This document shows, piece by piece, positions 3 through 13,157 of a stretch of DNA of 13,157 nt. The notes under the pieces were generated by a model that was given only the letters and a program-made list of their open reading frames with translations, was not told where the DNA came from and made no database searches. The translations under genes were made by a program, and so were the position numbers. The DNA is from an uncultured Gammaproteobacteria bacterium (GTDB lineage: Bacteria > Patescibacteriota > Microgenomatia > Daviesbacterales > UBA10151), in NCBI GenBank assembly GCA_964522265.1, contig CAZFVS010000009.1, positions 5,819-18,975 on the forward strand, read 5' to 3'. Within the stretch, counting starts at the first letter, position 1. Each line of letters opens with the position of its first letter.

Positions 3-1079
3 GGATCCATTTCGCTATTTATTTTTAACCTAAGACTTGTTTCAGCCGCTCTTTTAGAAAGAAATTTGCATTTCAATAAATTAGTCATAGCCGAAATAGG
101 AGAACTTCTGATGCGTCAAGTTCTGACTATAATTCTGGCTTACTTGGGTTATGGTGTTGCTAGTTTTGTTTGGGGATTACTGGTGAGCCGATTAGGAGGG
201 TCGGTATTTTATTATATTTTATATCCCTGGAAGATGAAATTTCGCTTTTCCTTTGCTGATATAAGACCTTTCCTGCCTTTTGGAATTCCGTTTCAACTGA
301 GTACTATAGCAAACAATGTAGGCGGGATAGCAACTCCCTGGATAGTGGGTGGTGAAGGGACGAAAGCCTTAGGGCTTGTTGGTTGGGCTGGGGGTACCGG
401 TCAAACAGCGGTGTCTATTAGTGATACAGTCAGTAAGGTAATATTCCCGATTTGTGCAAGAGTCCAACATCACAAGAAGCTTGTGATAAGCAGTATCGAG
501 AAAGCGGTTCACTTTACCAGTCTTATGACTTTTCCGGTTGTAGCGATGATGTTTGTTTTGGCTGAACCGATAACTTACATAATATTTACAGCTAAATGGA
601 AAGACGGGATACCGGCTCTGTATGTCTTTACTCTTTCTTCGGTATTTATCTCATTTAGCCATTTGTCCAATTTTATTCTGCTTGGTCTTGGTAAATCACG
701 GATAGTCAGAAACATCTCAATATTAAACGGTTGTCTGCTTTGGTTGTTGGCAATTCCTCTGGTAAGGTATTTTGGTTTTATCGGTATGGCCTGGGCAAAT
801 TTACTAGTTTACCTAACATCAATAATTGCTTTTAGGGAAATAAAAAAAGTAGCTGATATTAGGATAATTACTTTTATTCTTCCGTATTTAATGTTTTCAG
901 CCGTAGCAGGAATAGCTACATTTCTGTATGTTCTTAAATTTCCAATACACAATTTTTTGGAACTTAGTCTGGCTGTGATTTTTGGATTTTTGCTGTATGC
1001 AATACTGGTTGGGATTTTTAGGCTGAAGCTAATTCTTCATGATGCCAAACAAATTTATGACCTTCTCAGGAAAGAATGA
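3..1079 (+). CDS. Polysaccharide/oligosaccharide flippase of the MOP superfamily (Wzx/PST-like), 5'-truncated by the window edge. Only the C-terminal ~359 codons are present.
   Basis: The track starts this ORF at TTG 66, but the same frame (codons from nt 3: GSISLFIFNLRLVSAALLERNLHFNKLVIAE...) has no stop back to the edge. The LLERNLHFNKLVIAEI segment resembles the conserved central (Q/E)R.L.F..L motif of PST/Wzx flippases. The rest is a run of hydrophobic helices typical of the Polysacc_synt_C half. TGA stop at 1077-1079. Confidence 0.7.
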   Translation, partial: GSISLFIFNLRLVSAALLERNLHFNKLVIAEIGELLMRQVLTIILAYLGYGVASFVWGLLVSRLGGSVFYYILYPWKMKFRFSFADIRPFLPFGIPFQLSTIANNVGGIATPWIVGGEGTKALGLVGWAGGTGQTAVSISDTVSKVIFPICARVQHHKKLVISSIEKAVHFTSLMTFPVVAMMFVLAEPITYIIFTAKWKDGIPALYVFTLSSVFISFSHLSNFILLGLGKSRIVRNISILNGCLLWLLAIPLVRYFGFIGMAWANLLVYLTSIIAFREIKKVADIRIITFILPYLMFSAVAGIATFLYVLKFPIHNFLELSLAVIFGFLLYAILVGIFRLKLILHDAKQIYDLLRKE

Positions 1080-1159: not shown

Positions 1160-1171
1160 GACAGGAAGATG

Positions 1172-1191
1172 CACCGCTTTTTAAAGCGGTG
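1172..1191. terminator. GC-rich palindromic hairpin 3 (CACCGCTTT/AAAGCGGTG). It is the first hairpin met by transcription leaving the minus-strand GT2 gene. Possible terminator or repeat-family member.
   Basis: Positions 1172-1180 pair with 1183-1191. The core GCTTTTTAAAGC is identical to hairpin 1, while the outer stem bases differ but stay complementary. Confidence 0.4.
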
Positions 1192-1237
1192 TAGATTCAT
1201 TGTTTGCCAAAGGACTAGTTAATTTCTCAGGATTCAT

Positions 1238-2017
1238 TCAGCCTTTCTTCTTACTGTCTTTGGCCAAAGCCTGGAGTTCCCAGATTTTTACCCATTTTAA
1301 AAAATGGTAAATCAAAAAAATAGAAGTTAGCACAAAACCCCTCACTCCTGATTTATAATCTTTAAACTCTTTTTGGCGGATCCAGAAGTTATAAATCATC
1401 GAGCCGGGTATTGTTAAAATACCTGCTCTTGACCCTTTTAAATACATGATTTTAGCCTGGTCGTCTGTGTACTTGTTAAATTTATATATCAGACCAGAAA
1501 TACTGCGGTGAGAAAGATGAATTATTGGAGTTTTGAGCTGCCCGATTTTGCCATTTATGATGATTCTTTCATGCACAGCAGCTGGAGTAACCCTCCCAAC
1601 TCCCCGTTTGAAGATTCGAGGATGCCCCCCGGAAAGAGTGGGTGTTAAAGGCTTACCTAAAAAAAATTGGTGAAAATAGACATTATAAGCGCTGTAATCA
1701 CTTTTTTTAATTGCATTGATAATTTCTCTACTCAGGTTAGCAGGTATTCTTTCATCGGCATCAAGCATTATGATCCAGTTACAAGTTGCTTTATTTAAAG
1801 CATATTGTTTTTGTTTACCTAAAGTTTGGAGTTTGTGCAAAAAAACATTTTTGGTATATTTTTTTGCAATTTTTACTGTGTTATCATCACTGAAATCATC
1901 CACCAGAATGATTTCATCAACCCAGAACAAACTTTTGAGAGACCCTGCGATTACATCCTGTTCGTTTTTAGTAATGATAACAGCCGAAATTGACGGATGG
2001 TTTGATAAAGGTCTCAC
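1238..2017 (-). CDS. Family-2 glycosyltransferase, WaaE/KdtX-like (beta-glycosyltransferase of the cd02511 type).
   Basis: The N-terminus ISAVIITKNEQDVIAGSLKSLFWVDEIILVDDFSDDNT is the classic GT2 Rossmann start. It has the LDADE (DxD-type) motif. The C-terminal KFNKYTDDQAK...GVRGFVLTSIFLIYHFLKWVKIWE tail is typical of WaaE-like enzymes. The start is GTG (plus-strand CAC at 2015-2017), and the frame upstream has no other start codon before the divergent wzm-like gene. Confidence 0.85.
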   Translation of the reverse strand: MRPLSNHPSISAVIITKNEQDVIAGSLKSLFWVDEIILVDDFSDDNTVKIAKKYTKNVFLHKLQTLGKQKQYALNKATCNWIIMLDADERIPANLSREIINAIKKSDYSAYNVYFHQFFLGKPLTPTLSGGHPRIFKRGVGRVTPAAVHERIIINGKIGQLKTPIIHLSHRSISGLIYKFNKYTDDQAKIMYLKGSRAGILTIPGSMIYNFWIRQKEFKDYKSGVRGFVLTSIFLIYHFLKWVKIWELQALAKDSKKKG

Positions 2018-2060
2018 GGAGGTAAGTTTTGCATAGATTGGTAGTTTTGTAAAGAAAAAA

Positions 2061-2900
2061 ATGGATAAAAATTATGACCTGGAAGAAATAATTATTGAAC
2101 CCAAACCCAAATGGATGCTTTTGAAAATTAAAGAGCTGTGGGATTTCAGAGAACTTTTTTACATTTTTGTCTGGAGAGATTTAAAGGTACGTTACAAGCA
2201 AACAATTCTGGGAGTTATGTGGGTAATTTTCCAGCCACTTATCACAGCGGCTGTTTTTTCATTATTTTTCGGAAGGTTGGCAAAAATGTCGTCCGGTAAT
2301 CTGCCGTATGAATTATTTGTATTTATAGGTTTAGTTTTTTGGATTTATTTTTCAAGTGCACTGTCCAATGCGAGCAACAGCATGGTGGAGCATGCCAATA
2401 CCATCAAAAAAATATATTTTCCCAAAGAAATTTTACCGATATCAGCTGTTATTACAAATTTTCTTGATTTTTGCATAAATTTTTTTATTTTAATAATATT
2501 ATCCTTGTACCTCGGTTATATACCTTCTAAAATTATTTTCGTTCTGCTGCCTGTTTCTGTTGTAATTATTTCTTTGGCTGCTTCGGGACTTGGATTGTTT
2601 TTGGCGTCTTTTAATGTAAAATATCGGGATGTCAGATACATTTTACCTTTTTTTATACAGCTTTTACTTTTTCTAACGCCTGTAATCTATCCGTCATCAT
2701 TTTTCAGGCCATCCCTGCAATATTTTTTCGGGTTCAACCCGCTAACCGGTGTCATAGAAAATATGCGGTTAGTTTTATCAGGCCGAAATCCAACGGATTG
2801 GAGCCTGGTTTTTATCTCAGGAACATCCGCAGTATTTTTGTTTATTGGAGGTTTGGCTTATTTCAGATCAACTGAAAGATATTTTGCCGATTTAGCATGA
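2061..2900 (+). CDS. wzm: ABC-2 type polysaccharide/teichoic-acid exporter permease (Wzm / TagG / KpsM family).
   Basis: The 279-aa protein has about 6 hydrophobic helices. The conserved N-terminal segment LWDFRELFYIFVWRDLKVRYKQTILGVMWVIFQPL is characteristic of ABC-2 glycan exporters. Its stop overlaps the ATPase start (ATGA at 2897-2900). Confidence 0.88.
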   Translation: MDKNYDLEEIIIEPKPKWMLLKIKELWDFRELFYIFVWRDLKVRYKQTILGVMWVIFQPLITAAVFSLFFGRLAKMSSGNLPYELFVFIGLVFWIYFSSALSNASNSMVEHANTIKKIYFPKEILPISAVITNFLDFCINFFILIILSLYLGYIPSKIIFVLLPVSVVIISLAASGLGLFLASFNVKYRDVRYILPFFIQLLLFLTPVIYPSSFFRPSLQYFFGFNPLTGVIENMRLVLSGRNPTDWSLVFISGTSAVFLFIGGLAYFRSTERYFADLA

Positions 2901-4177
2901 AACCTCTTATTGAGATTTTTAAATTATCAAAATGCTACAATTCAGTTTCCCAAAAAGATTCCTATGTAGCCCTAAGAGATGTTATACCTAATTTCATAAA
3001 ATCTTCGTTGCAGTTTAAAAAAATTCAAAAGAAATATTTTTTTGCTCTAAGGGGTATCAATTTAGCAGTTAATGAAGGGGATGTTATAGGCGTTATTGGT
3101 GCAAACGGCGCCGGCAAATCGACTTTTTTAAAGATTTTGGCCCGGATTACTCCTCCCACTTTCGGAAAAGCCATCTTAAGGGGAAGAGTGGCATCATTGC
3201 TTGAAGTAGGGACAGGTTTTCATCCGGAGCTGACCGGAAGAGAGAATGTATTTTTAAACGGTACTCTTTTAGGTATGACCAGAAGAGAAATTAGGCAAAA
3301 ATTTGATGATATTGTAAATTTTTCCGGAGTTGAAAAATTTCTTGATGCCCCGGTAAAGCATTATTCAACAGGCATGCAGTTGAGGTTGGCTTTTTCAGTA
3401 GCAGCGCATATTAATCCTGATATTTTGCTTGTTGATGAGATTTTGGCGGTTGGAGACGCTGACTTCCAGAAAAAAACATTGGCAAGAATACGCGATATTT
3501 CTGTCAGAGGGAAGGCGATCATTTTTGTTTCCCATAATTTATCCGCTATTACATCACTTTGCAATAAAGTTGTTCTTTTGGAATCGGGCCGTATGGTAAA
3601 AATCGGTAACCCGGCAACAGTTGTCTCAAGCTATTTGAAAAAATCCGGAGTTATAACGACAGCAAAGTTACCGGCAAACAGTTATTATGCGAACAGTTTT
3701 ATCCACATATTAAAAATCTCAGTTTGCAGCAGTGAAGGTAAGACTTTTAAGTCATTTGATATCACGAAACCCTTAAATATAGAGATTTGTTATCAGATAA
3801 TAAAGATGAATGTATGGTTTACCTGTCATGTTTTCGTTACCGATATGTCGGGAACTCTGCTGTTCCAATCCCCCGAAGATGCCAGCGGAGACCCGGCTTT
3901 TGCTCCAAAAACGACCGGTACGTATAAAAGCACTTGTATTATTCCGGGGAATTTCTTGCCGGAAGGGTTATTTTCTGTGAGGATTGTGATAGCTCCTTCT
4001 TTAATACTTATAAAAGAAGCAATTGATATTAGTAATGTTATCACTTTTCATATACATGACAGTTTAAGGGGGGATTCAGTAAGAGGAAAGTTGTCAATGA
4101 TATTATCCGGAGCTGTCAGGCCAAAATTTGCCTGGAATAGGATAAAATTAACAAAACCTGCTTCAAGTTTTAAATGA
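2897..4177 (+). CDS. wzt: ABC transporter ATP-binding protein for glycan export (Wzt / TagH family) with an additional ~165-aa C-terminal beta-rich domain (Wzt_C-like).
   Basis: Walker A GANGAGKST (nt 3098-3124), signature YSTGMQLRLAF, Walker B ILLVDEILAVGD and H-loop FVSHN are all present. Residues ~262-426 (nt ~3680-4174) extend beyond the nucleotide-binding domain. The gene is coupled by ATGA overlaps at both ends. Confidence 0.9.
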   Translation: MKPLIEIFKLSKCYNSVSQKDSYVALRDVIPNFIKSSLQFKKIQKKYFFALRGINLAVNEGDVIGVIGANGAGKSTFLKILARITPPTFGKAILRGRVASLLEVGTGFHPELTGRENVFLNGTLLGMTRREIRQKFDDIVNFSGVEKFLDAPVKHYSTGMQLRLAFSVAAHINPDILLVDEILAVGDADFQKKTLARIRDISVRGKAIIFVSHNLSAITSLCNKVVLLESGRMVKIGNPATVVSSYLKKSGVITTAKLPANSYYANSFIHILKISVCSSEGKTFKSFDITKPLNIEICYQIIKMNVWFTCHVFVTDMSGTLLFQSPEDASGDPAFAPKTTGTYKSTCIIPGNFLPEGLFSVRIVIAPSLILIKEAIDISNVITFHIHDSLRGDSVRGKLSMILSGAVRPKFAWNRIKLTKPASSFK

Positions 4178-5748
4178 CCCAAGAAAAAATTAGTGCCAAA
4201 CAAAAACTACCCGGATTATTTATTGGGATTTGTACAGTTTGCCTGATTGCAGTTTTTTTGTATAGCGGGGTTTTAAATGCTTATTTTGTAAGTGAAGATT
4301 ATGAATGGTGGACCAGGGTGCGGAATATTGATTTAATCAACTCTTTCCGGTTATTTTTACCACCAATTTTGGGTGGTATATCTTTACCACCATATTTTCG
4401 GCCCCTGGTTGGTTGGACTGTTTGGTTGGATACAGTTGTTTTTGGGATGACTCCTTTGGCATCCCATATAACCAGCTTAATATTTCATTTAATTAATATT
4501 GCCTTGGTTGGAATAATTGGTTTTTATATTTTCAGAAAATCGATCTTAGCCGGCGTACTGGGTGCACTTTTTTTTTCCGTTTTTCCCTTTCATCCTGAAG
4601 CTGTAGTTTGGAGTATAGGCGGTAGGAGTGATGTAGTAATGGCTACTTTTTATTTATCAGCTTTCCTCGGTGTCATGAAGTATGTTGAATACAATAAGAG
4701 AACTTTTGTAATTCCGATTTTAATATGCTTTCTGCTGGGATTATTATCTAAAGAAGCTGCTGCGACCTTTCCTCTTGCGGTTTTGGTTTATCTTCTTTTT
4801 TCAAATCAAGGAAGCATTCACGAAAAACTATCCGCCCAGAAAAATTTGTTAGTGATATCGGTTGTGGTATTTATAGGTTATTTTGTTTTCCGTAGTGTGG
4901 TACTGCAGACGATTAACCCCTATCAGGCGGTGAAAATGATAAGCAGTTTTACTCTGGGCAGCATATTTCAATTATATCTGATTCTATTATTGAGCAGCTT
5001 ACTCTTTAGAAGTATTCTTAACCGGATGGTGCCAAAAAATCTGGAATGGATAAAGAATAAAATATGGTATTTATGGATGCTGATAGGGATTACATTTTTG
5101 CCGACTTCCTATTTGGTTACACAAGAAAGGCAGTTGTATTTACCCTCAGCTGTTTCCGGCTTGTTTCTATCGGGGGTTATTTTCATAATTTATAGTTATA
5201 TAAAAGGCAAATCAGTTTTAATCAAAACATTTTTTATTATTTCTGTCATCTCTGGTTTGGTATATAGCGGCCAATTGCTTTACCAAAGAAATGAAGTCTG
5301 GAAAAATGCAGGAAATATTGCCCAGTCTATTGCCGGCCAGCTTGCCGATCAATTAGCGGAAGTGGGCACCGATAAAAAAGTTTATTTTGTCAATGTACCG
5401 GACAGCGTTAATGGGGCATATATTTACCGGACTCATCTTCAGCAAGCGGTAGAGTTTTTGTTAAACAGGCAAGGGCCACAGCTTATTGTTACACCGGAGC
5501 TTTATGGTACAGACTCAAAAGTTTACTACATATCCCCCAGAAATATCCGGGTCGAAAACGAACAGGGTTTTGTGATGTATTTGGCTAACAAGGATAGGTA
5601 TGGGAGGTTTGTAAAAGAAACCCCGGACTATTATGCGACCTTATTATCAAAAAAGTTATTAAATATAGAGATTAAGGATCAGGATTTCAGTAAAAAAAGA
5701 AACCTGGTTTATTTTTTAAAGAATGGGAAAATAGAATTATTGGAATAA
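4174..5748 (+). CDS. Polytopic membrane protein, GT-C-fold glycosyltransferase-like (TMTC / PMT_2 / DUF1736-type), with a ~150-aa non-TPR C-terminal soluble domain.
   Basis: An acidic first-loop motif (VSEDYEWW) follows TM1. The motifs YFRPLVGWTVWLD...HITSLIFHLINIAL...FHPEAVVWSIGGRSDV...LLSKEAAATFP match the conserved loop and helix pattern of bacterial TMTC-like GT-C proteins. ATGA overlap with the wzt-like gene. Confidence 0.62.
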   Translation: MTQEKISAKQKLPGLFIGICTVCLIAVFLYSGVLNAYFVSEDYEWWTRVRNIDLINSFRLFLPPILGGISLPPYFRPLVGWTVWLDTVVFGMTPLASHITSLIFHLINIALVGIIGFYIFRKSILAGVLGALFFSVFPFHPEAVVWSIGGRSDVVMATFYLSAFLGVMKYVEYNKRTFVIPILICFLLGLLSKEAAATFPLAVLVYLLFSNQGSIHEKLSAQKNLLVISVVVFIGYFVFRSVVLQTINPYQAVKMISSFTLGSIFQLYLILLLSSLLFRSILNRMVPKNLEWIKNKIWYLWMLIGITFLPTSYLVTQERQLYLPSAVSGLFLSGVIFIIYSYIKGKSVLIKTFFIISVISGLVYSGQLLYQRNEVWKNAGNIAQSIAGQLADQLAEVGTDKKVYFVNVPDSVNGAYIYRTHLQQAVEFLLNRQGPQLIVTPELYGTDSKVYYISPRNIRVENEQGFVMYLANKDRYGRFVKETPDYYATLLSKKLLNIEIKDQDFSKKRNLVYFLKNGKIELLE

Positions 5749-5749
5749 C

Positions 5750-7492
5750 ATGTTTTTACTGATTCTTATATTAATTTTAGGGGTGGTTGTCAGGTTATGG
5801 GGAATAAATTTCGGTTTGCCGTATATTCAACATTTAGATGAGGGGGGGGTAACATATACTGCTTTTTTTGCAGCAGCCAACCACCTTAAACCGGATATGT
5901 ATTTTCATACAACCTTCCTGCCGTACAGCTTGATATTGTTATATGGGGTATATTATTTATTCGGGTTAATATTCCATTTATGGGGGTCGACCCAACAGTT
6001 TTTTACTGCATTTTTAAAAGATCCGAGCATCTTTATTCTGATCGGTCGAATGATTACTGTTATGATTTCGGTGGCTTCTATAGTATTGATTTATTGGATT
6101 GGTAAGAAACTTTACGACTACAAGATAGGTTTAATATCTGCATTATTTTTAAGCCTAGCATTTCTTCATGTACAAGAGTCACACTATATCAAAGAAGATG
6201 TCATGATGGGGTTTTTTGGTTTGTTAATCTACTACAATTCTTATCAATTATCCCAAAAAGGTAGGTACAGAAATTATTTATTGTGCGGGCTGTTTCTGGG
6301 ATTGTCCTTTGCGCTAAAGTATAATTTTTTTGTTTTTTTGCCGGTATTTATTGTCTCCCATCTGCTGGTCGGTTTTCAATCAAAACATAAATGGTTGTAT
6401 CTAAATTTAAAATTTCTTACAGCGATTTTTATTGTAGTTACTCTTTATTTTTTTATAAATCCCTACGTATTAATTGATTGGCACAAGGCAGTTCGGCAGC
6501 TTGATTATCAAAAGGAGCTTTCGATTGTCCAGTGGGTTAGTTCTGAAGGTCAACCTGTTTGGGTTTATTACATAAGCCATCATTTACTAAACGGAATCGG
6601 TTTTCCCTTGCTAATCTTAAGTGTTTTAGGAGTTTTTTATTCTGTTTTTGGTAAGAAAAACACAAAAGATATTCTTTTAGTTACGACGCCTGTCTGTTTT
6701 TTCCTCTTGATCGGGATAGCTGGAGGCACAAATTTTTCCAGATATGTGGTGATGATTATTCCTCAGCTGATGCTTATTGCTGCTGTAATGATAAATCGAT
6801 TGGTAAATATGATCAACCAAACGCAACCTAAAAAGAATTTTCTGCTCTTTTTTGCCAGTATTCTGGCAGTTATTCCGTCAGCTATTTTAGTCATTAAATT
6901 TGATTATTACCTGAGCAGTAATGATACGCGCATATTGGCTAAAAATTGGATAGAAAAGAATATACCTGCCGGTACAAGACTGGTTAACGAGGGGGCTGCC
7001 AGATCGCAGATCTATTCGGCAATCGGACCGCCCCTTTCCATGGACCAGGAATCAATAAAGAAACTTATTGCAGAGGTATCCGGAAAGGGCTTAGATATCG
7101 GATCACTTCTTGCGCTGTCATATGCGACTCAAGATAGGGTTGGTTATAACTTAATTGGTACTCCCAGGATGGATTATAAATATAATCCTGATTCAGGTAG
7201 TTATAGTACTCTTTCGTCGGTTGATGAATATGTTAAAGGAGAGTACTGCTTTTTAGTTTTATCTAGCTGGGCTGTTAAAAACAGGCAAAAATATAACCGG
7301 GATTTTGAAACTTCAATCAATAATTCATATTATTTGTATAAAGAATTTTTGCCTTTTCCTGAGCTGAACGAAGATCTCATATGGAATGTTGATTATAATA
7401 ATCTGGTTCGTGTCAGAATATTCGACAACAGAATTACTTCTGGTCCGCGGATTAAAATCTTTAAACTTAAGGATAACAAGGGTTGCAAGTAA
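5750..7492 (+). CDS. Polytopic membrane protein, ArnT / GT39-like GT-C glycosyltransferase (lipid-carrier-dependent) with a C-terminal soluble domain.
   Basis: The N-terminal RLWGINFGLPYIQHLDEGGV motif (LP....DE in the first extracytoplasmic loop) is typical of PMT_2/ArnT-like enzymes. There are at least 10 hydrophobic helices and a soluble tail from about residue 385. The start lies 1 nt after the preceding TAA. Confidence 0.68.
   Translation: MFLLILILILGVVVRLWGINFGLPYIQHLDEGGVTYTAFFAAANHLKPDMYFHTTFLPYSLILLYGVYYLFGLIFHLWGSTQQFFTAFLKDPSIFILIGRMITVMISVASIVLIYWIGKKLYDYKIGLISALFLSLAFLHVQESHYIKEDVMMGFFGLLIYYNSYQLSQKGRYRNYLLCGLFLGLSFALKYNFFVFLPVFIVSHLLVGFQSKHKWLYLNLKFLTAIFIVVTLYFFINPYVLIDWHKAVRQLDYQKELSIVQWVSSEGQPVWVYYISHHLLNGIGFPLLILSVLGVFYSVFGKKNTKDILLVTTPVCFFLLIGIAGGTNFSRYVVMIIPQLMLIAAVMINRLVNMINQTQPKKNFLLFFASILAVIPSAILVIKFDYYLSSNDTRILAKNWIEKNIPAGTRLVNEGAARSQIYSAIGPPLSMDQESIKKLIAEVSGKGLDIGSLLALSYATQDRVGYNLIGTPRMDYKYNPDSGSYSTLSSVDEYVKGEYCFLVLSSWAVKNRQKYNRDFETSINNSYYLYKEFLPFPELNEDLIWNVDYNNLVRVRIFDNRITSGPRIKIFKLKDNKGCK
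5842..5849 (+). repeat. G8 homopolymer tract inside the GT39-like CDS (codons gaG GGG GGG Gta, encoding E31-G32-G33-V34).
   Basis: Counted directly: aggggggggt at 5841-5850. It is the longest G/C run I noticed in an otherwise AT-rich window. Confidence 0.9.
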
Positions 7493-7512
7493 AGTGTAAC
7501 CTTGTTTAGTAG

Positions 7513-7545
7513 TTGAAAGCCTTTGTTCGGTAATGCTAGTATAAT
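7513..7545 (+). promoter_or_regulatory. Candidate sigma70-like promoter in the only sizeable gap of the plus-strand cluster.
   Basis: TTGAAA (7513-7518), 18 nt spacer, TGcTAGTAT (7534-7542), overlapping a perfect TATAAT at 7540-7545. It lies 15-20 nt upstream of ATG 7561. This rests on motif matching only. Confidence 0.3.
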
Positions 7546-7560
7546 TTTAATTCTCTGCTC

Positions 7561-10479
7561 ATGAAAAGGTGGTTGCTGCTAGTTTCTAGTATTATCTTTC
7601 ATATATCAACGCATATCACTGCTGTAGCGCTTCTCATATTCTTTTTTTTGCCCATCTCAAATTGGTATATCAATCACTCGGTGATACTGGGAGTTGACTT
7701 CTATAATATGGTTTCTAACACTTCTTATTATTCCCGGCATTTTGATGCCCGTTACTTAGGTTACAAACCAATCAATTGGGCCGGATACCCATATGCATAT
7801 GATTACCCCTCCCTTCATTTTTATCTGAATGCATTGCTGGTGCCATATTTTGGTGTTCAACAATCAACTCTAATATATTCGATGTTATCTTTGTTTGCGT
7901 TCGGGCTTAGTAGTTATTTTTTATTCTGGGTGATTTCAAGAAATAAAGCGTTGTCTTTTGTTTTGGCGCTTTTCAGCCTATACTCCTCGGCGAATTGGGG
8001 TCCGATTATTTGGGGTGGTAACTTACAGTATGTAGGAACAATGGCATTTTTACCGTTTACTATTGGGTTGCTTTATTTATATACCCAAAGCAAAACAAGG
8101 AAATTTTTAATCGTTTCTGCTGCTGTTGCAGGACTTTCTGTATTGGGCCACCCGCAGATCTTAATTTCTTACATCTCAATATTTGTGTTCCTGATTATTG
8201 TCTTCGGATACTTTGAAAAAATTAAGGCGACTATCAAAAGAAGGCTTGTAGATTTGGGGATTTATTTTGGGGTAGTTCTGGTTATATCCTATGTTCAATT
8301 ACAACAATTCCTGGGATCCAACATCCTATATTTACCCGTATATATTTTAAATCAAATTAGTGCACTATTTTCAAGATTTTCCGGGTCTGTGAGTAAGCCT
8401 GATTATGGTTCTTCGGTTAGCAGTATTACCCCGATAGCAACTATCAAAGCAATCGCAGCCTACAATAAACAGGAGTTTTGGAGGTTTCTGTCTGAAGTTA
8501 ATGAAATATTTTTTGTATTTTTTGCTGCAGCGGTCGTCTTATTAATTATTAGTGTAATTTTTGCAAAAAAGAGGTTAAAGGTATTAGGCGTTCTGCCTTT
8601 TTTAATATTCTTAGGCTATACGTTCGTATCAATTTATGGACTTTCAAGGGGAATCCCTTTTTTTCAGGGTGGTTGGTATAGGGCTTTTTGGGCAATGCCT
8701 CTGGCATTTGGGGTTTGTATTGCTTATGGATACCGAATGTTTTGGTTCTCGTTAATAGAGCGGATCAGTCTGTTGGATAGTTTAGCTGCAAAAAGTATTC
8801 TGGCATTGGTATTTACAATTGTAATTTCAGTATCGGGATATTTTTACTTCAGTAGGCAGCCGTTGGAAGATTTTATTGATAAGCACATTGATACCATTAG
8901 GTTTAGACAAAAGTCAGGTGTTTATCCGGATGCGCTTAACAAACCGTTTAAAAACCATTCAGAATTTGAAAATTTAGCCCAAAATTTAGTTCCTAAATGG
9001 CTTCCTGTGCAAGATCATCAATACCGATTATATTCAGCTGACCAGAAAGTCAATATTTGGTGGCCAACTTTTTATGAGATGCCTCTTTTCAGAGGTTATA
9101 ACGATTCCCCGATTGGTTCAGGTATGGCAGGGTCATATTTTTGGACTGATATAGCACTCGCTGCCAATGCCGGAAAAGATCCCATTATTGAGGATTTCAA
9201 ATATCCAAAAGATATTGCTAAAAACAACGCGCTATATTTAATTGATTGGTTTTCGATAGGTTATTTTGAGGGGGGACACGAAAGAAGCGATTCTTACAAT
9301 CCTCCATCCAGTTTCTTACTGGAGGATAAAAATATTTTTGAAAGGGAAGAAATAGCTTCTGTTGCCGGTAGAGTTAAAGTATTTGAGACAAAAGACGGGA
9401 AAATGGAGTGGGTGAATGACGACAGTGACGCACTGAAATTTTACAAGTTCAAAGATGGTTTAGTTTCACCGGTTGCGTCAGCTACAGATGCATCAATTAT
9501 TGGTATTATCGGTTCGTGGGAGAGTTTTGAAACTTTTAACAGAAGTTTGGCGATGACTAATACCAACTCTCAGCAGCTTATTACAGTGTGGCTTACACAA
9601 TCATTGGCAGAAATACCCAGTTTGGATAATCTAAATTTAGACGCAGTGATATTATATGGATATAAAAATGGAGATAACAATTCTGGTTGGAATAAAGTAG
9701 AAAAATATCTCAAAAAAGGTGGTAAAGTTTTTGTGGAAACAGGTAGTGATGTTTTTCAGACTAAAAATACCAAGCTGCCTAAAATTTTTCCTATAGAAGG
9801 TACCAAACGAGAGGGATTGGGCATGAGTTGGGATTTAAATGAATTTGGACCTCCCAGTATTGATGGTAAGGAGTGGAACTTTTCACTGCCAACAAACTTA
9901 AAGAATAATGCTGAAGTTATACTAAAAACCGGTAATACACCCTTGATTGTTAGCGGATCTTTTGAAGGCGGTAAAGTAATTTGGAGCGGCATGAACCTTT
10001 TCTATCATGCCAATGTTTATAAATCAACTAAAGAAGGAGAGTTTATCAGGTCCATAGTTTCTCGATTGGTTTCACTGGAAAAAAACGATCCTCCACCCTC
10101 GCAAGCCCAATTTATCAGCAACCGAAAGATTAAAATTAAATCCCAAAATGCCAAAGCAGTGTTGCTTAGACAGGAATTTTGGCCTGTCTGGACTGCCAAA
10201 GTTAATGGTCAAACTCAAAAGATCTTACCGGCAGGTCCAACGGGTCCAGGATTTATGTACGTTCCGATTCCGACACAGCTTCGAGATAAACCGGTTGAGG
10301 TTGAATTCAATTATCAGGGGGATACCTCAACACTTATATATACAATATTAACGATTGTAGTATCGCTGGTTATACTAGATTATTTATTAGGTGGCAAAAT
10401 CACTAAAATGATTTATTTGAGACACCAGGGGAAAATAGTTAATCATATAGGTAGGTGGTGGAAAAAAGAAGATGAGTGA
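7561..10479 (+). CDS. Large (972 aa) YfhO-like / GT-C-superfamily-like membrane protein. N-terminal polytopic domain (~aa 1-430), ~490-aa extracytoplasmic domain, single C-terminal TM anchor.
   Basis: It has many hydrophobic helices with loop motifs WAGYPYAYDYPSLHFY and GLSVLGHPQ. The C-terminal EFWPVWTAKVNGQTQKILPAGP..GFMYVPIP...VEVEFNYQG, followed by the helix TLIYTILTIVVSLVILDYLLGG, reproduces the W.A.V.G......V....V.F.Y-plus-terminal-TM pattern of YfhO-family proteins. The family call is from memory of motif patterns, not from a search. Confidence 0.6.
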   Translation: MKRWLLLVSSIIFHISTHITAVALLIFFFLPISNWYINHSVILGVDFYNMVSNTSYYSRHFDARYLGYKPINWAGYPYAYDYPSLHFYLNALLVPYFGVQQSTLIYSMLSLFAFGLSSYFLFWVISRNKALSFVLALFSLYSSANWGPIIWGGNLQYVGTMAFLPFTIGLLYLYTQSKTRKFLIVSAAVAGLSVLGHPQILISYISIFVFLIIVFGYFEKIKATIKRRLVDLGIYFGVVLVISYVQLQQFLGSNILYLPVYILNQISALFSRFSGSVSKPDYGSSVSSITPIATIKAIAAYNKQEFWRFLSEVNEIFFVFFAAAVVLLIISVIFAKKRLKVLGVLPFLIFLGYTFVSIYGLSRGIPFFQGGWYRAFWAMPLAFGVCIAYGYRMFWFSLIERISLLDSLAAKSILALVFTIVISVSGYFYFSRQPLEDFIDKHIDTIRFRQKSGVYPDALNKPFKNHSEFENLAQNLVPKWLPVQDHQYRLYSADQKVNIWWPTFYEMPLFRGYNDSPIGSGMAGSYFWTDIALAANAGKDPIIEDFKYPKDIAKNNALYLIDWFSIGYFEGGHERSDSYNPPSSFLLEDKNIFEREEIASVAGRVKVFETKDGKMEWVNDDSDALKFYKFKDGLVSPVASATDASIIGIIGSWESFETFNRSLAMTNTNSQQLITVWLTQSLAEIPSLDNLNLDAVILYGYKNGDNNSGWNKVEKYLKKGGKVFVETGSDVFQTKNTKLPKIFPIEGTKREGLGMSWDLNEFGPPSIDGKEWNFSLPTNLKNNAEVILKTGNTPLIVSGSFEGGKVIWSGMNLFYHANVYKSTKEGEFIRSIVSRLVSLEKNDPPPSQAQFISNRKIKIKSQNAKAVLLRQEFWPVWTAKVNGQTQKILPAGPTGPGFMYVPIPTQLRDKPVEVEFNYQGDTSTLIYTILTIVVSLVILDYLLGGKITKMIYLRHQGKIVNHIGRWWKKEDE

Positions 10480-13156
10480 TGATAAAGAGTCGGTAAAACT
10501 TAATGAAGAGATAATCGAAAAAGATGTCGAAAAACTGACCGAAGATGTAGTGAAAATAATAAAAAAAGAGGAAAAGATTCATACCCGGATATTCAGATGG
10601 ATTTTATTTTTAATAAGTGCTTTAATAAATGTTGCTGCAGCGGGAATAGTTTATAAAACTCTAGAACCTATTATCGGTTGGTATCTGACAAAAAATCCGG
10701 TTAGAGGAATTGATTTATTTTTATCTGCAGCTTATGCCAACTATATTATAAAATGGCATGACTTTTTAAGGCCTTTTGCCTGGAAATATATTTGGTTTGG
10801 CGGACAACCATTCTCTTTAGATTATCCATCGCTATATTTTTTAGGGATGATTCCCTTTGTAGAAAAGTTCGGATTAATTCAGGGAGTAATGCAATTTGCT
10901 GTGTTTTTTTTGCTGATCTTTGCCATCTCTTGCTATTTTTTCTACAAGGAACTTTCTTCAAATGTCGGTTTGTCTTTGGTTTTAACTGTTGCTACTATTT
11001 TATCGGTAAATTTATATCGAGCACTAATTTGGGCCGGCGGTATTCCTTTCTGGTCTACCCAAGCCTTTTATCCGTTAGTCGGTTTTCTGCTGGTCAGGTT
11101 TTTGAATACTTACAAAAAAAAATGGTTATATTTAGCAGGTATTATTGCGGGGTTGGGAGTTATGGGGCATCCGCAAGGTTTTTTAAATGTTATTATTCCT
11201 TTAAGCATTCTGATTTTACTCTTTTACAGCGGTAAGGAGGGGTTAAAAATTGGTCAAAGGATCAAGAATTTGGTTATTTTTCTTCTAATTTGGTTTTTGG
11301 TTGGTCTTCCGGGTATATTATTAAATTTTGTCGGCACCCTATTTTCAGCACTAATATCTTATTTGGGCCAATTAGGTTCATTATTTGGTAAATCAGTTAT
11401 AAATCCATCTGTAGTAAGTAGCGGTCCGGTTGAGGGATCAACAGCTGCAGATATAATTAAATGGACTCATCAGCAATTTTATTATGTCTTTTCTGATACG
11501 CAGCAAATCATTTGGTACTTATTGGGAATATTTGCACTTTGCTGGATTGTTACCGTTGTATTCCGCAAGCACCGGATTAGAAGCATACTATGTATTTTGC
11601 CCTTTGTAATTTTCCTAAGTTATCAATTTATCTCTGTATTTTTGTTTTCAAGAGGGATAGACTTATTTATCACCGGTTGGTACAAAGCTTTCTGGCCTAT
11701 ACCGGTGGCTGCTTCCGCGTTAACTGCGGTGTTTTGGGGGCAAACAACGCAGGCGTTTAAAAGATTTAATTCCTTTAAATTATTTAAGATGACCTCTTGG
11801 TCTGTTGCAATAGCAACAAATTTAATCTTTATTTCGTTTGGGTATTTATATTTTACACCCGGATTAACAAAAGTATTAGTTGACCGGATAGATTTTTTAT
11901 CCACGATGTCCAGTCCGTATCCTGATATTTTGAATATTAAAATCAGTGATACAGAGAGAAAAGATTTGGCATCCCAACTGGTTCCTAAGTTTATAGACCC
12001 GAACGATAAAAATAAAAGGCTTTATACGGTTGACGCCACGGTCAATTTATGGTGGCCTACTATGTATGATATGCCACTAGCCAGAGGGTATGTAGATCCT
12101 GCAATTAATACCGCCCAAAGATGGGGAATTTTTTGGTTGGATTCAATTATGGGGCCGTCTGGTAAAGATTCCAAAGCCTCATTGATTGTTGACTGGAAAA
12201 CTCCGGAAAATGTGGCTTATGAAAATACTAAGTTTCTGCTTGATTGGAATTCCATATATTATTATTTAGGGAATTATTCAAGCAACTCTCCCTCGATACT
12301 GGCGGAACATGTAATAAGCAATGATTATACAGATGGGGAGGAAGAGGTCAAGACATTCGGAGTGATTAGGCGTTATGGTCCGCCTGCAGAAGAAGTGGGG
12401 AAGTTTTATCCTGATTGGACTCAATCGCTTAAATATTATCGAGTTAAGCCTGAACTGGTTTCACCGATACTGGCTCCCAATAATGCCAGCCCAATCCTGC
12501 TAATTGGAGATGCGGTTGCTTATGACACATTTTATCGCTTTATCGGTATGCATAATTTGAATAGTCAAAAAATTGTAATTGCAACGAAATCAAATTTTAT
12601 AGATGACTACAGTTTATCTGAAATAAAAAAGTTTGATAAGGTAATCCTATACCGCTATGACTATAAAGATAAATCAAAAGCCTGGGAAACACTGTCGAAA
12701 TATCTGGAAAAAGGCGGACGGGTATATATTGATACCGGACCAGAGGGGAAAGAAGCCGCAGCTAGTAATTTACCTGGGATACTGCCTGTAAAACGAACTA
12801 CCAGAAACAACATTGGACGGGATTGGAACGTTGAGGTTTCAGATAGTAATCTAACACAAGAAATAATGTTTGATAAATTCACCCCTTTAGATTTTGACGG
12901 ACAACCCTGGAATGTATCCCATCCGGATAGTGACAGTGATCTTGCAGCAGATGCAAAAATCATTTTAAAAAACAATGGCAAAATAGTAGCCGTTGAAACC
13001 GATATTGGATCCGGAAAGGTAATTTGGACAGGGTTTAATTTACCGTATCATATAATCCGGGATTATAACGAAGAAGAATCCAAGTTTTTGATTAACATCC
13101 TCTTTTCCGATCTTGATATAGCGGAAAAGAGGATCGATAATTTTAATTATCGGTTC
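10472..13156 (+). CDS. Second YfhO-like large membrane protein, a tandem paralog of 7561..10479. It is 3'-truncated by the window edge (895 codons present) and is NOT in the supplied ORF track.
   Basis: Frame 2 is open from ATG 10472 (overlapping the upstream stop: ATGAGTGA) to the last base. Translation: MSDDKESVKLNEEIIEKDVEKLTEDVVKIIKKEEKIHTRIFRWILFLISALINVAAAGIVYK...DYPSLYFL...GLGVMGHPQ...GWYKAFWPIP...LVPKFIDPNDKNKRLYTVDATVNLWWPTMYDMPLARGY...KYLEKGGRVYIDTGPE...GSGKVIWTGFNLPYH...IDNFNYRF. These motifs are collinear with the upstream gene. Confidence 0.85.
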   Translation, partial: MSDDKESVKLNEEIIEKDVEKLTEDVVKIIKKEEKIHTRIFRWILFLISALINVAAAGIVYKTLEPIIGWYLTKNPVRGIDLFLSAAYANYIIKWHDFLRPFAWKYIWFGGQPFSLDYPSLYFLGMIPFVEKFGLIQGVMQFAVFFLLIFAISCYFFYKELSSNVGLSLVLTVATILSVNLYRALIWAGGIPFWSTQAFYPLVGFLLVRFLNTYKKKWLYLAGIIAGLGVMGHPQGFLNVIIPLSILILLFYSGKEGLKIGQRIKNLVIFLLIWFLVGLPGILLNFVGTLFSALISYLGQLGSLFGKSVINPSVVSSGPVEGSTAADIIKWTHQQFYYVFSDTQQIIWYLLGIFALCWIVTVVFRKHRIRSILCILPFVIFLSYQFISVFLFSRGIDLFITGWYKAFWPIPVAASALTAVFWGQTTQAFKRFNSFKLFKMTSWSVAIATNLIFISFGYLYFTPGLTKVLVDRIDFLSTMSSPYPDILNIKISDTERKDLASQLVPKFIDPNDKNKRLYTVDATVNLWWPTMYDMPLARGYVDPAINTAQRWGIFWLDSIMGPSGKDSKASLIVDWKTPENVAYENTKFLLDWNSIYYYLGNYSSNSPSILAEHVISNDYTDGEEEVKTFGVIRRYGPPAEEVGKFYPDWTQSLKYYRVKPELVSPILAPNNASPILLIGDAVAYDTFYRFIGMHNLNSQKIVIATKSNFIDDYSLSEIKKFDKVILYRYDYKDKSKAWETLSKYLEKGGRVYIDTGPEGKEAAASNLPGILPVKRTTRNNIGRDWNVEVSDSNLTQEIMFDKFTPLDFDGQPWNVSHPDSDSDLAADAKIILKNNGKIVAVETDIGSGKVIWTGFNLPYHIIRDYNEEESKFLINILFSDLDIAEKRIDNFNYRF

Positions 13157-13157
13157 A

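Follow-up and report, generated by a model that had tools for sequence, protein, structure and literature searches.

Does a Wzm/Wzt exporter followed by four membrane proteins of the GT-C type constitute a dedicated system that exports a glycan polymer and completes it mostly outside the cell? The locus analysed here raised this question in an earlier note, whose reading, if true, would amount to a novel mode of surface-glycan assembly. The window (the whole stretch of DNA analysed, 13,157 nucleotides) has the gene content on which that reading was based: gene calls, Pfam matches and a fold model of bigA confirm that Wzm/Wzt is directly followed by four co-directional polytopic GT-C-type proteins, and a divergent GT2 is the only soluble glycosyltransferase within the window (Table 1). 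No polymerising cytoplasmic glycosyltransferase, priming phosphoglycosyltransferase or sugar-nucleotide gene is visible within these 13 kb. Wzm, Wzt, PMTa, PMTb, bigA and bigB are all encoded on the plus strand, from position 2061 to the end of the window, with 4-nt overlaps at 2897 (Wzm/Wzt) and 4174 (Wzt/PMTa), a 1-nt gap at 5749 (PMTa/PMTb) and an 8-nt overlap at 10472 (bigA/bigB). The sole real gap in the run, 68 nt long, lies 5′ of bigA, and the other four junctions overlap or nearly abut. Because the six genes are co-oriented and tightly packed they are probably co-transcribed, in agreement with the claim that the GT-C genes are joined in one operon with the exporter.

Table 1. Features of the 13,157-nt window, with coordinates and the main evidence for each assignment.
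Feature	Position	Strand	Evidence or remark
Wzx/MOP-type flippase, 3′ part, cut by window start	3..1079	+	Polysacc_synt_3, E 3.5e-35
Terminator-like hairpin between convergent Wzx and GT2	1170..1193	+	10-bp stem, 5 G-C pairs; consensus match only
Soluble GT2 (GT-A), 259 aa	1238..2017	-	Glycos_transf_2, E 5.7e-18; divergent from exporter operon
Wzm, ABC-2 permease of glycan exporter	2061..2900	+	ABC2_membrane, E 5.3e-21
Wzt, ABC ATPase with C-terminal extension	2897..4177	+	ABC_tran; NBD residues ~38-255
PMTa, PMT_2-family GT-C, 524 aa	4174..5748	+	PMT_2 33.2 bits vs gathering 26.1
PMTb, second PMT_2-family GT-C, 580 aa	5750..7492	+	PMT_2 46.3 bits vs gathering 26.1
Gap 5′ of bigA, possible internal promoter for the pair	7493..7560	+	exact TATAAT at 7540-7545
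bigA, 972 aa	7561..10479	+	PF10131 25.7 bits; GT-C fold model
bigB, >895 aa, cut by window end	10472..13157	+	paralogue of bigA; PF10131 33.8 bits

The first two genes of the run encode an ABC-2 permease and an ATPase of the Wzt/TagH/KpsT group, the composition of a glycan ABC exporter. Wzm has six hydropathy-predicted TM segments and, among NCBIfam models, fits the galactan export permease Wzm/RfbD best and KpsM next; Wzt matches the Wzt/RfbE and TagH models, and for both proteins the top NCBIfam scores are those of galactan-exporter models, though far below the cut-offs. Over models and structures together, both are nearest to galactan, teichoic-acid and Aquifex Wzm/Wzt. The nucleotide-binding domain of Wzt matches Aquifex Wzt (E 5e-62), TarH/TagH (TarH 9e-52) and mycobacterial RfbE (3e-47) in the PDB. 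The Wzt extension of ~170 aa, encoded at ~3647-4174, is a putative, divergent carbohydrate-binding domain of the Wzt_C type: taken alone it matches Wzt_C (PF14524) weakly (E 0.021, 15.2 bits against a cut-off of 30.4), and the same family is matched by 25 of 34 aligned homologous C-terminal domains (best E 1.6e-11). The profile of this C-terminal part gave no match in the PDB. Relatives of Wzt, of which even the nearest reaches only ~45% full-length identity, reside in classical loci with NDP-sugar genes and cytoplasmic glycosyltransferases, and in L074/L087, L103, L109 and L053 a same-strand PMT_2-type GT-C follows.

PMTa and PMTb both score above the gathering threshold of PMT_2 (PF13231) and carry an acidic pair after TM1, which is E41-D42 in the PMTa sequence; in PMTb the pair is D30-E31, which together with H28 shows no variation among six homologues. 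Hydropathy predicts seven TM segments and a soluble C-terminal part of ~150 aa for PMTa, and nine segments and ~190 aa for PMTb. The two proteins have no similarity to each other detectable by BLASTP, and PDB sequence searches with either returned nothing meaningful. A PMT_2 (GT39/GT83-like) GT-C identity holds for this pair, and the subfamily labels given previously are correct only in part. TMTC-like is unsupported: at E≤0.01 both PMTa and PMTb matched PMT_2 and no TPR or TMTC family. YfhO-like is wrong for bigA and bigB at the level of the family, PF09586 being matched by none of 45 members of their family and by no window protein at the same threshold, with PF10131 nearer.

bigA and bigB are paralogues (31% identity over 860 residues, E 4e-118). 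bigA comprises a GT-C domain of ~13 helices (residues 1-~435), a motif region (~440-640) and a GH42-like ectodomain (~640-920), and ends with a TM anchor (925-943) and a WWxKEDE tail. A hydropathy scan detected 8 strong TM segments within residues 1-430 in addition to this anchor, and a model of residues 1-450, of moderate confidence (pTM 0.76, pLDDT 67.5, from an 8-sequence alignment), contains ~13 long helices. The best 19 matches of this model in a Foldseek search of the PDB are all GT-C enzymes, with STT3 (E 4.6e-5, TMq 0.54), AglB, PglB, ArnT, DPY19 and GPI-MT-I among the top ones. The full-length model was poor (pLDDT 53), and only its C-terminal part gave usable matches, resembling the C-terminal half of GH42 enzymes and STM3548; across the family the ectodomain combines a GATase1-like domain with a beta-sandwich (GH42-like). 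In the first external loop, which follows helix 1, G44 and D46 do not vary across 45 members, both paralogues and third copies included, and R489, D494, N498, W500-W501, P508, R511-G-Y and D515 are strongly conserved ~60-80 residues past the last helix, giving the family pattern R-x4-D-x3-N-x-W-W...P-x2-R-G-Y-x-D a short way beyond the membrane. Searches of the PDB by sequence or profile with bigA and the family alignments found nothing meaningful, and a profile-profile comparison of the bigA N-terminal domain with the PMTb family reached only 10% probability; fold and motif, and not a sequence link to PMT_2, are the basis for placing bigA in the GT-C group. The fold model of bigA and the motif lead us to conclude that bigA and bigB are GT-C-type glycosyltransferases, predicted to use polyprenyl-phosphate sugars on the outer face of the membrane. 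The strongest family motifs fall within residues 440-640, and the model spans 1-450.

The nearest described family is PF10131 (PTPS_related), a member of the GT-C clan CL0111 whose function is listed as unknown (PMC7801869). It is matched by 32 of the 45 bigA/bigB family members (E≤0.01, best E 1.8e-15), yet bigA itself falls just below the gathering cut-off of 26.4 bits, through profile positions 4-144, and bigB exceeds it through C-terminal profile positions 476-555 only. With their distinctive C-terminal anchor and tail, bigA and bigB form a group of their own relative to PF10131. The family comprises roughly 820 clusters at 50% identity, 378 of them at E≤1e-30; word-indexed protein searches returned the same seven proteins only, also with the 45-sequence alignment as query. 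We know of no characterised member of either this family or PF10131. bigA and bigB belong to an uncharacterised, tandemly paired GT-C family that occurs here only in Microgenomates and related CPR MAGs.

We compared gene order in 31 loci related to bigA/bigB, 28 of them distinct, and in 80 Wzt-related loci. The 25 genome loci with relatives belong to Patescibacteria/Microgenomates MAGs or to MAGs that are labelled otherwise, evidently wrongly, and have the same locus type. Wzm/Wzt was found in none of the 31 bigA/bigB-related loci within ~10 kb of the pair (tblastn, E<0.1), and none of the 80 Wzt-related loci contained homologues of PMTa, PMTb, bigA, bigB or GT2, so that the conserved module wzm-wzt-GTC-GTC-YfhO-YfhO proposed as a neighbourhood check is not seen from either side. 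In the closest relative, L007, bigA and bigB are 80% and 79% identical to the window proteins and GT2 is present as an 82%-identical fragment, whereas PMTa and PMTb have counterparts of only 42% and 35% identity (the L012 and L014 copies of PMTb reach 42-44%). In L007 the position of Wzm/Wzt is taken by Wzx, GT4 and GT2 genes, and three extra genes (methyltransferase, GT87-like and GT2) are inserted 5′ of bigA. Tandem copies of bigA/bigB occur in 20 of the 28 distinct loci and fall into position-specific clades in a rough NJ tree; in relatives the pair is the conserved flank of a hypervariable cassette. These comparisons suggest that the pair is old and retained. Other components recur nearby: GT2 orthologues of 40-45% identity adjoin the pair in L001/2/9, L003, L004, L006/8 and L029, and Wzx homologues of 28-43% identity lie near it in L001/2/9, L007, L011, L013, L024, L028 and L029, the window flippase itself matching the NCBIfam MOP flippase and O-glycosylation Wzx models. 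A double GT4 of ~780 aa is convergent to the pair in 18 of the 28 distinct loci and recurs with a 387-aa GT4, a 229-aa methyltransferase and a 478-aa PMT_2 protein; the NCBIfam matches of this GT4 set are to generic GT4 models. By synteny, the double GT4, second GT4 and methyltransferase genes probably lie within the 5.8 kb of the source contig outside the window.

These results change the picture of an outside-heavy locus. In relatives, the neighbours of the pair include conventional GT4/GT2 enzymes of the cytoplasm, and the locus looks outside-heavy only because of where the window ends. The earlier note had itself named an unconserved gene order and a conventional set of cytoplasmic glycosyltransferases as evidence against its reading; essentially both were found, the latter next to the pair in relatives. 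Export of a polymer followed by its decoration outside the cell is still a sensible reading of the genes; what fell is the notion of a dedicated system. From synteny, the joining of wzm-wzt to the GT-C genes appears to be a strain-specific cassette arrangement in a hypervariable region.

We consider it somewhat probable that the window represents the 5′ portion of a large, mosaic locus for a cell-envelope glycan, in a Curtissbacteria-like host from the Microgenomates (Patescibacteria/CPR), with the pathway that follows. The analysis itself shows the gene content, the GT-C fold, the paralogy of bigA and bigB, the unconserved order and the cytoplasmic glycosyltransferases of relatives. In the cytoplasm, GT-B/GT-A enzymes whose genes lie beyond the window would make a lipid-linked polymer; judging by synteny, the genes are most likely those of the double GT4, second GT4 and methyltransferase just downstream of bigB. 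Wzm/Wzt would export this polymer, the carbohydrate-binding-type domain at the C terminus of Wzt recognising a polymer end. The four GT-C enzymes would then act on the outer face of the membrane with polyprenyl-phosphate-linked sugars: the strain-variable PMTa and PMTb may add side-chain or protein-linked sugars, and the lineage-conserved bigA and bigB would perform a core step outside the cytoplasm, in which the glycan is either elongated or passed to its final acceptor, possibly as a heteromer comparable to EmbA-EmbB or Pmt1-Pmt2. The substrates, the order of the steps, the heteromer and the gene content beyond the window are inferred.

A different role for bigA and bigB is conceivable, in which they act like an oligosaccharyltransferase or ligase and move a whole lipid-linked glycan in one step onto a surface protein or wall polymer; the variable cassette would make this glycan, and Wzx or Wzm/Wzt would flip it. 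Such a role would explain why a conserved pair stands beside neighbour genes that vary, the pair flanking a variable centre. In structure, STT3, AglB and PglB match best (TMq up to 0.55), and bigA shares with STT3/PglB the succession of ~13 helices and an external domain; monosaccharide transferases are also matched, DPY19 at TMq 0.50 and ArnT less well at 0.37, so that the fold does not discriminate between the two activities. Oligosaccharyltransferases carry a WWDYG motif past the last helix, and the conserved WW-containing motif of the family sits roughly at this position, but it differs from WWDYG and its region extends beyond the 1-450 model. No sequence match to any oligosaccharyltransferase was obtained by single sequence or profile, and no acceptor protein was identified. 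We regard this role as unlikely, and equally doubtful its more specific form, a heteromeric bigA/bigB pair that attaches strain-variable glycans, delivered via Wzx or Wzm/Wzt, to the surface of an ultrasmall cell.

The mosaic-locus reading has also to be weighed against a meaningless adjacency, in which recombination would have placed a Wzm/Wzt that serves an unrelated polymer, for instance a teichoic-acid-like one, beside GT-C enzymes that use the Wzx pathway. The same GT-C genes of relatives occur with Wzx and never with Wzm/Wzt, Wzx is encoded in the window as well, and each of the six window proteins tested stands alone in its 90%-identity cluster, with even the nearest Wzt as distant as noted above. 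Against this, the 4-nt start/stop overlaps of wzt and PMTa suggest translational coupling and co-expression, and the succession of an ABC exporter and a PMT_2 GT-C recurs in other lineages and in the gac cluster (PMC8035078). We find a chance adjacency quite improbable. Least tenable is a self-contained system in which Wzm/Wzt would export a simple precursor that the four GT-C enzymes build up or decorate outside, the gene order being a functional module: the tight packing of six genes on one strand, the single soluble glycosyltransferase of the window and the adjoining Wzx flippase and GT2, reminiscent of three-component systems, speak for it, yet the order is kept in no locus from either side, L007 has other genes where Wzm/Wzt would be, a cytoplasmic GT4 adjoins the pair in most distinct loci, and the putative carbohydrate-binding-type extension of Wzt is a usual feature of exporters whose polymers are completed in the cytoplasm (pathway logic of PMC11127046), which makes it very improbable and, from synteny, largely refuted.

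The arrangement had been considered unlike any described system; gac, mycobacterial arabinogalactan and Klebsiella O2 are described precedents. In the gac cluster of S. pyogenes, which encodes the ABC exporter GacDE, the GT-A enzyme GacI, the Wzx-type flippase GacK and the PMT_2 GT-C GacL, GacDE exports a polymer made in the cytoplasm and GacL decorates the exported polymer (PMC8035078). All four component types of gac and the related rhamnan/EPA clusters are represented in the window, compared here by type only. It differs in that rhamnosyltransferases are found inside the gac operon and no backbone glycosyltransferase in the window, although relatives have GT4 genes of the backbone type, that it lacks a GacJ-like small membrane protein, the gaps containing no ORF for one, and that it has four GT-C genes instead of one, two of them from the PF10131-related family. 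In mycobacteria, Wzm-Wzt exports galactan, to which several GT-C enzymes (AftA-D, EmbA/EmbB) then add arabinose; here too a lipid-linked polymer is exported and extended outside by multiple GT-C enzymes, some of them tandem paralogues whose external carbohydrate-binding domains are large (PMC11127046, PMC13018209). The likeness of bigA/bigB to Emb/Aft does not extend to sequence beyond the common fold (Foldseek E 0.3-1), the ectodomains are GH42-like in bigA/bigB and CBMs in Emb/AftD, and no DPA-type donor pathway genes are seen in the window.

The polymannose pathway of E. coli O8/O9a uses WbdA, WbdB/C, WbdD, Wzm and a Wzt with a carbohydrate-binding domain, and is without GT-C enzymes. The window Wzt resembles it through its putative carbohydrate-binding C-terminal domain, and the two-GT4-domain enzyme, single GT4 and methyltransferase of relatives mirror WbdA, WbdB/C and WbdD at the level of domains only; unlike O8/O9a, relatives with this GT4 set have no Wzm/Wzt nearby. 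Three-component systems (GtrA/GtrB/GtrV, CsbB/GtcA/YfhO and gmlABC of Klebsiella O2) combine a GT2, a flippase and a GT-C, as the window does, and act on polymers after export, including those exported by ABC transporters (PMC11127046, PMC8035078). The proposed analogy with CsbB/GtcA/YfhO is weak in detail. GT2 has no hydropathy-predicted TM segment, in the PDB it is closest to the GT2 domain of GmaR (4.4e-15), with SunS also matched and no GtrB or DPMS match at E≤0.01, and its NCBIfam matches are generic and confined to the N-terminal half; a GtrB/CsbB-type role was rejected on these grounds. The only flippase is of the Wzx/MOP type, with no ORF or Pfam match for a small GtrA-family flippase in the window, and YfhO is unmatched. 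No gene for a GtrB/CsbB-type polyprenyl-phosphate-sugar synthase turned up to account for the donors of the GT-C enzymes.

Judged by synteny, the gene order appears to be a one-off reshuffle of known parts and not a new conserved system, and it therefore does not change the understanding of glycan assembly. The bigA/bigB family is the more interesting finding, flagged here as a candidate for the terminal step. The comparison also provides a first description of the organisation of a surface-glycan locus in Microgenomates, a group for which, to our knowledge, there are no cultured representatives and whose envelopes are poorly known. Its conserved core comprises the paired PF10131-like GT-C proteins, the double GT4, the GT4 and the methyltransferase, with a hypervariable cassette alongside, as is the pattern of O-antigen and capsule loci subject to diversifying selection.

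Neither a tRNA nor an Rfam family was detected in the window. Promoter-like sites are at chance level over its whole length (42 found, 44.3 expected); one of them, TTGAAA-18-TAGTAT with a TG, lies in the gap 5′ of bigA, a region poorly conserved in L007. Terminator-like hairpins number 15 in the whole window, against 10.3 ± 2.9 expected from shuffles.

The window (37% GC, 13,157 bp) carries eight genes, six of which form a single co-directional run (see table), and our gene calls bear out both the coordinates and the gene count of the earlier note. At four of the five junctions between wzm and bigB, the stop codon of one gene and the start codon of the next overlap or are almost contiguous. 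The sole real gap in the run, 68 nt at 7493-7560, lies 5′ of bigA and contains an exact TATAAT hexamer at 7540-7545, 15 nt 5′ of the bigA start, which may be an internal promoter of the conserved bigA/bigB pair. Promoter-like sites show no enrichment in the window, and the 7493-7560 segment is poorly conserved in L007, the nearest related locus.

Genes of the window, with positions in nucleotides
Gene	Position	Strand	Arrangement
Wzx/MOP flippase gene, 3′ part	3-1079	+	
Soluble GT2	1238-2017	-	divergently oriented
Wzm	2061-2900	+	co-directional run of six
Wzt	2897-4177	+	co-directional run of six
PMTa	4174-5748	+	co-directional run of six
PMTb	5750-7492	+	co-directional run of six
bigA	7561-10479	+	co-directional run of six
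bigB	10472 to beyond 13157	+	co-directional run of six

Wzm and Wzt constitute a standard glycan ABC-2 exporter. They match the Pfam families ABC2_membrane and ABC_tran, respectively, their top NCBIfam models are galactan exporter Wzm/Wzt, TagH and KpsM, and the nearest solved structures are Aquifex Wzt, TarH/TagH and mycobacterial RfbE. The C-terminal extension of Wzt, about 170 residues long, gives by itself a weak match to Wzt_C (E 0.021). Because 25 of 34 aligned homologous C-terminal domains from metagenomes match Wzt_C (best E 1.6e-11), we read this extension as a predicted, divergent carbohydrate-binding domain. The soluble GT2 (259 aa) is devoid of predicted transmembrane helices and resembles GmaR rather than GtrB/CsbB.

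PMTa and PMTb both exceed the Pfam gathering score of PMT_2 and have two adjacent acidic residues after TM1, while BLASTP detects no similarity between the two. Since neither of them matches a TPR or TMTC family in the Pfam search, the “TMTC-like” label proposed previously is unsupported. The large proteins bigA and bigB are paralogues (31% identity over 860 residues) that lie at the edge of PF10131, a member of the Pfam GT-C clan (PMC7801869), with scores of 25.7 and 33.8 bits, respectively, for a cut-off of 26.4. PF10131 is matched by 32 of the 45 family members that we collected and YfhO by none of the 45, hence the description of the pair as YfhO-like was not borne out.

Searches of the PDB with bigA family sequences and profiles returned no match, and profile-profile comparison of the bigA and PMTb families gave a weak result. 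The model of full-length bigA was poor (pLDDT 53), and residues 1-450 were modelled separately (pTM 0.76, pLDDT 67.5). The 19 best PDB matches of this model are all GT-C enzymes, the first being yeast STT3 (E 4.6e-5, TMq 0.54), followed by AglB, PglB, ArnT, DPY19 and GPI-mannosyltransferase I. In GT-C enzymes the catalytic acid sits in the loop after helix 1, and D46, located in that loop of bigA, is invariant in 45/45 members. Given these fold matches and the invariant D46, we accept the proposal of four consecutive GT-C proteins. The bigA/bigB pair may more specifically be an oligosaccharyltransferase (OST)-like or ligase-like en bloc transferase, a reading compatible with the STT3-like top matches, the 13-helix layout and the pattern of a conserved core with variable cassettes; however, DPY19 scores almost as well as STT3, and the fold does not separate OST from monosaccharide transferases.

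Beyond their GT-C domain, the proteins of this family have a large external part. Residues ~640-920 of bigA resemble the C-terminal half of GH42 beta-galactosidases, which consists of a GATase1-like domain and a beta-sandwich, and also STM3548. The strongest conservation of the family is found outside the membrane domain, in the external stretch 489-573 (window 9025-9279), where R489, W501, P508, R511, G512, Y513 and D562 are invariant, D494, N498, W500, D515 and P517 are nearly so, and AlphaFold confidence is below 50. At the C-terminus (window 10360-10476 in bigA), a membrane anchor (925-943) is followed by a nearly invariant WWxKEDE tail, predicted to be cytoplasmic, with which the proteins of the family end (alignment of 45 sequences); W966 and W967 are kept in at least 90% of the 45 members. 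Some relatives are much longer (P0008, P0012, P0013, P0019 and P0079, from the cluster-library profile search; 1264-1326 aa, one of 2159 aa) and contain several profile-matching stretches, and a 1313-aa ORF in the family locus L028 (7241-11179) ends with a second ectodomain copy (query residues 609-972).

By neighbourhood comparison, the exporter and the GT-C genes do not form a module of conserved order. When all window proteins were run by tblastn against the 31 loci (28 distinct) that surround bigA/bigB relatives, neither Wzm nor Wzt gave a match even at E<0.1, and none of the 80 metagenomic loci centred on Wzt relatives, of which 38 reach at least 3 kb downstream, contained a homologue of PMTa, PMTb, bigA, bigB or GT2. 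The bigA/bigB relatives form a same-strand tandem pair in 20 of the 28 distinct loci, and L010, L011, L013, L014, L022 and L030 have, a few kb downstream and on the other strand, a third copy that is more divergent (24-29% identity). In a rough NJ tree the copies fall into position-specific clades, indicating that the duplication is old and that both copies have been kept. A ~780-aa double-GT4 protein is convergent to the pair in 18/28 distinct loci (in L007 at 17800-20139, minus strand); with its frequent companions, a GT4 of ~385 aa (387 aa), a methyltransferase of ~230 aa (229 aa) and a 478-aa PMT_2 protein, it looks like the real conserved module surrounding the pair. Several loci have orthologues of Wzx and of the 259-aa GT2 next to the pair, and in L029 the order Wzx-GT2-pair is contiguous on one strand.

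Alignment of window 1238-13157 with L007 1-15968 reveals a mosaic in which the flanks are ~80% identical (GT2 82% over a 76-residue fragment, bigA 80%, bigB 79%) and the centre is 35-42% identical or replaced. PMTa is 42% identical to its L007 copy, and PMTb is 35% identical to the L007 copy versus 42-44% to copies in other genera, which suggests cassette exchange. The Wzm/Wzt slot is filled in L007 by Wzx, GT4 and GT2, and a methyltransferase, a GT87-like membrane protein and another GT2 precede bigA there. Conserved flanks and a divergent centre are the pattern of hypervariable surface-glycan loci, which speaks for a strain-specific cassette arrangement at the wzm-wzt/GT-C junction.

The bigA/bigB family is small: out of 1.84 billion, an exhaustive profile search retrieved 819 50%-identity clusters at E≤1e-3, of which 378 pass E≤1e-30. 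When one genome per species was scanned, 25 loci with relatives were found, confined to CPR MAGs (the cluster library carries no taxonomy); the named hosts are all Microgenomates/Patescibacteria MAGs (Curtissbacteria, Daviesbacteria, Levybacteria, Chisholmbacteria, Gottesmanbacteria and CPR3). bigA is 80% identical to its relative in L007 and 54% to that of named Curtissbacteria, and at 90% identity each of the six window proteins tested forms a cluster of its own. The MAGs of L007, L012, L014, L018, L020, L022, L027 and L030 (binchicken/SRP co-assemblies), in which this Microgenomates-type locus occurs at 32-41% GC, are titled “uncultured Gammaproteobacteria bacterium”, a name that seems to be a placeholder or a wrong assignment.

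The view that this arrangement had not been described does not hold given several close precedents. The gac cluster of S. pyogenes encodes the ABC exporter GacDE, the GT-A enzyme GacI with GacJ, the Wzx-type flippase GacK and the PMT_2 GT-C protein GacL, which decorates the rhamnan after its export (PMC8035078). In mycobacteria, Wzm-Wzt exports galactan, to which several GT-C enzymes then add arabinose, some of them tandem paralogues whose external domains are large (PMC11127046, PMC13018209). In Klebsiella, too, a three-component GT-C system modifies O-antigens that are made by the ABC-dependent pathway (PMC11127046). Compared to these systems, the window is unusual only in its number of GT-C genes (four) and in its PF10131-like pair. 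The mechanism envisaged in the earlier note is partly supported, and a conserved, undescribed, “outside-heavy” system is refuted by the lack of conserved order, by these precedents and by the cytoplasmic GTs of relatives. The analysis shows the component identities, the GT-C fold, tight co-directional packing and cytoplasmic GTs in relatives. In the working that we propose, GT4/GT2 enzymes, whose genes probably lie in the 5.8 kb of the source contig that the window does not cover, would build a polymer in the cytoplasm while it is attached to a lipid carrier, Wzm/Wzt would then export the polymer, and at the outer face the four GT-C enzymes would either modify it or transfer it. The uncharacterised paired GT-C family of Microgenomates is what most deserves to be followed up.

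Adjacency of exporter and GT-C genes recurs elsewhere: among the metagenomic Wzt loci, L074/L087, L103, L109 and L053 have a same-strand gene for a PMT_2-type polytopic protein after Wzm-Wzt. In L074 (8970-14265) and L103 (9178-14302), from unrelated metagenomic lineages, the order is Wzm, Wzt with its carbohydrate-binding domain, a DegT-type aminotransferase and a 667-727-aa PMT_2-like membrane protein, which may be a separate exporter/GT-C association. In L103, a Wza-like Poly_export/SLBB gene lies upstream.
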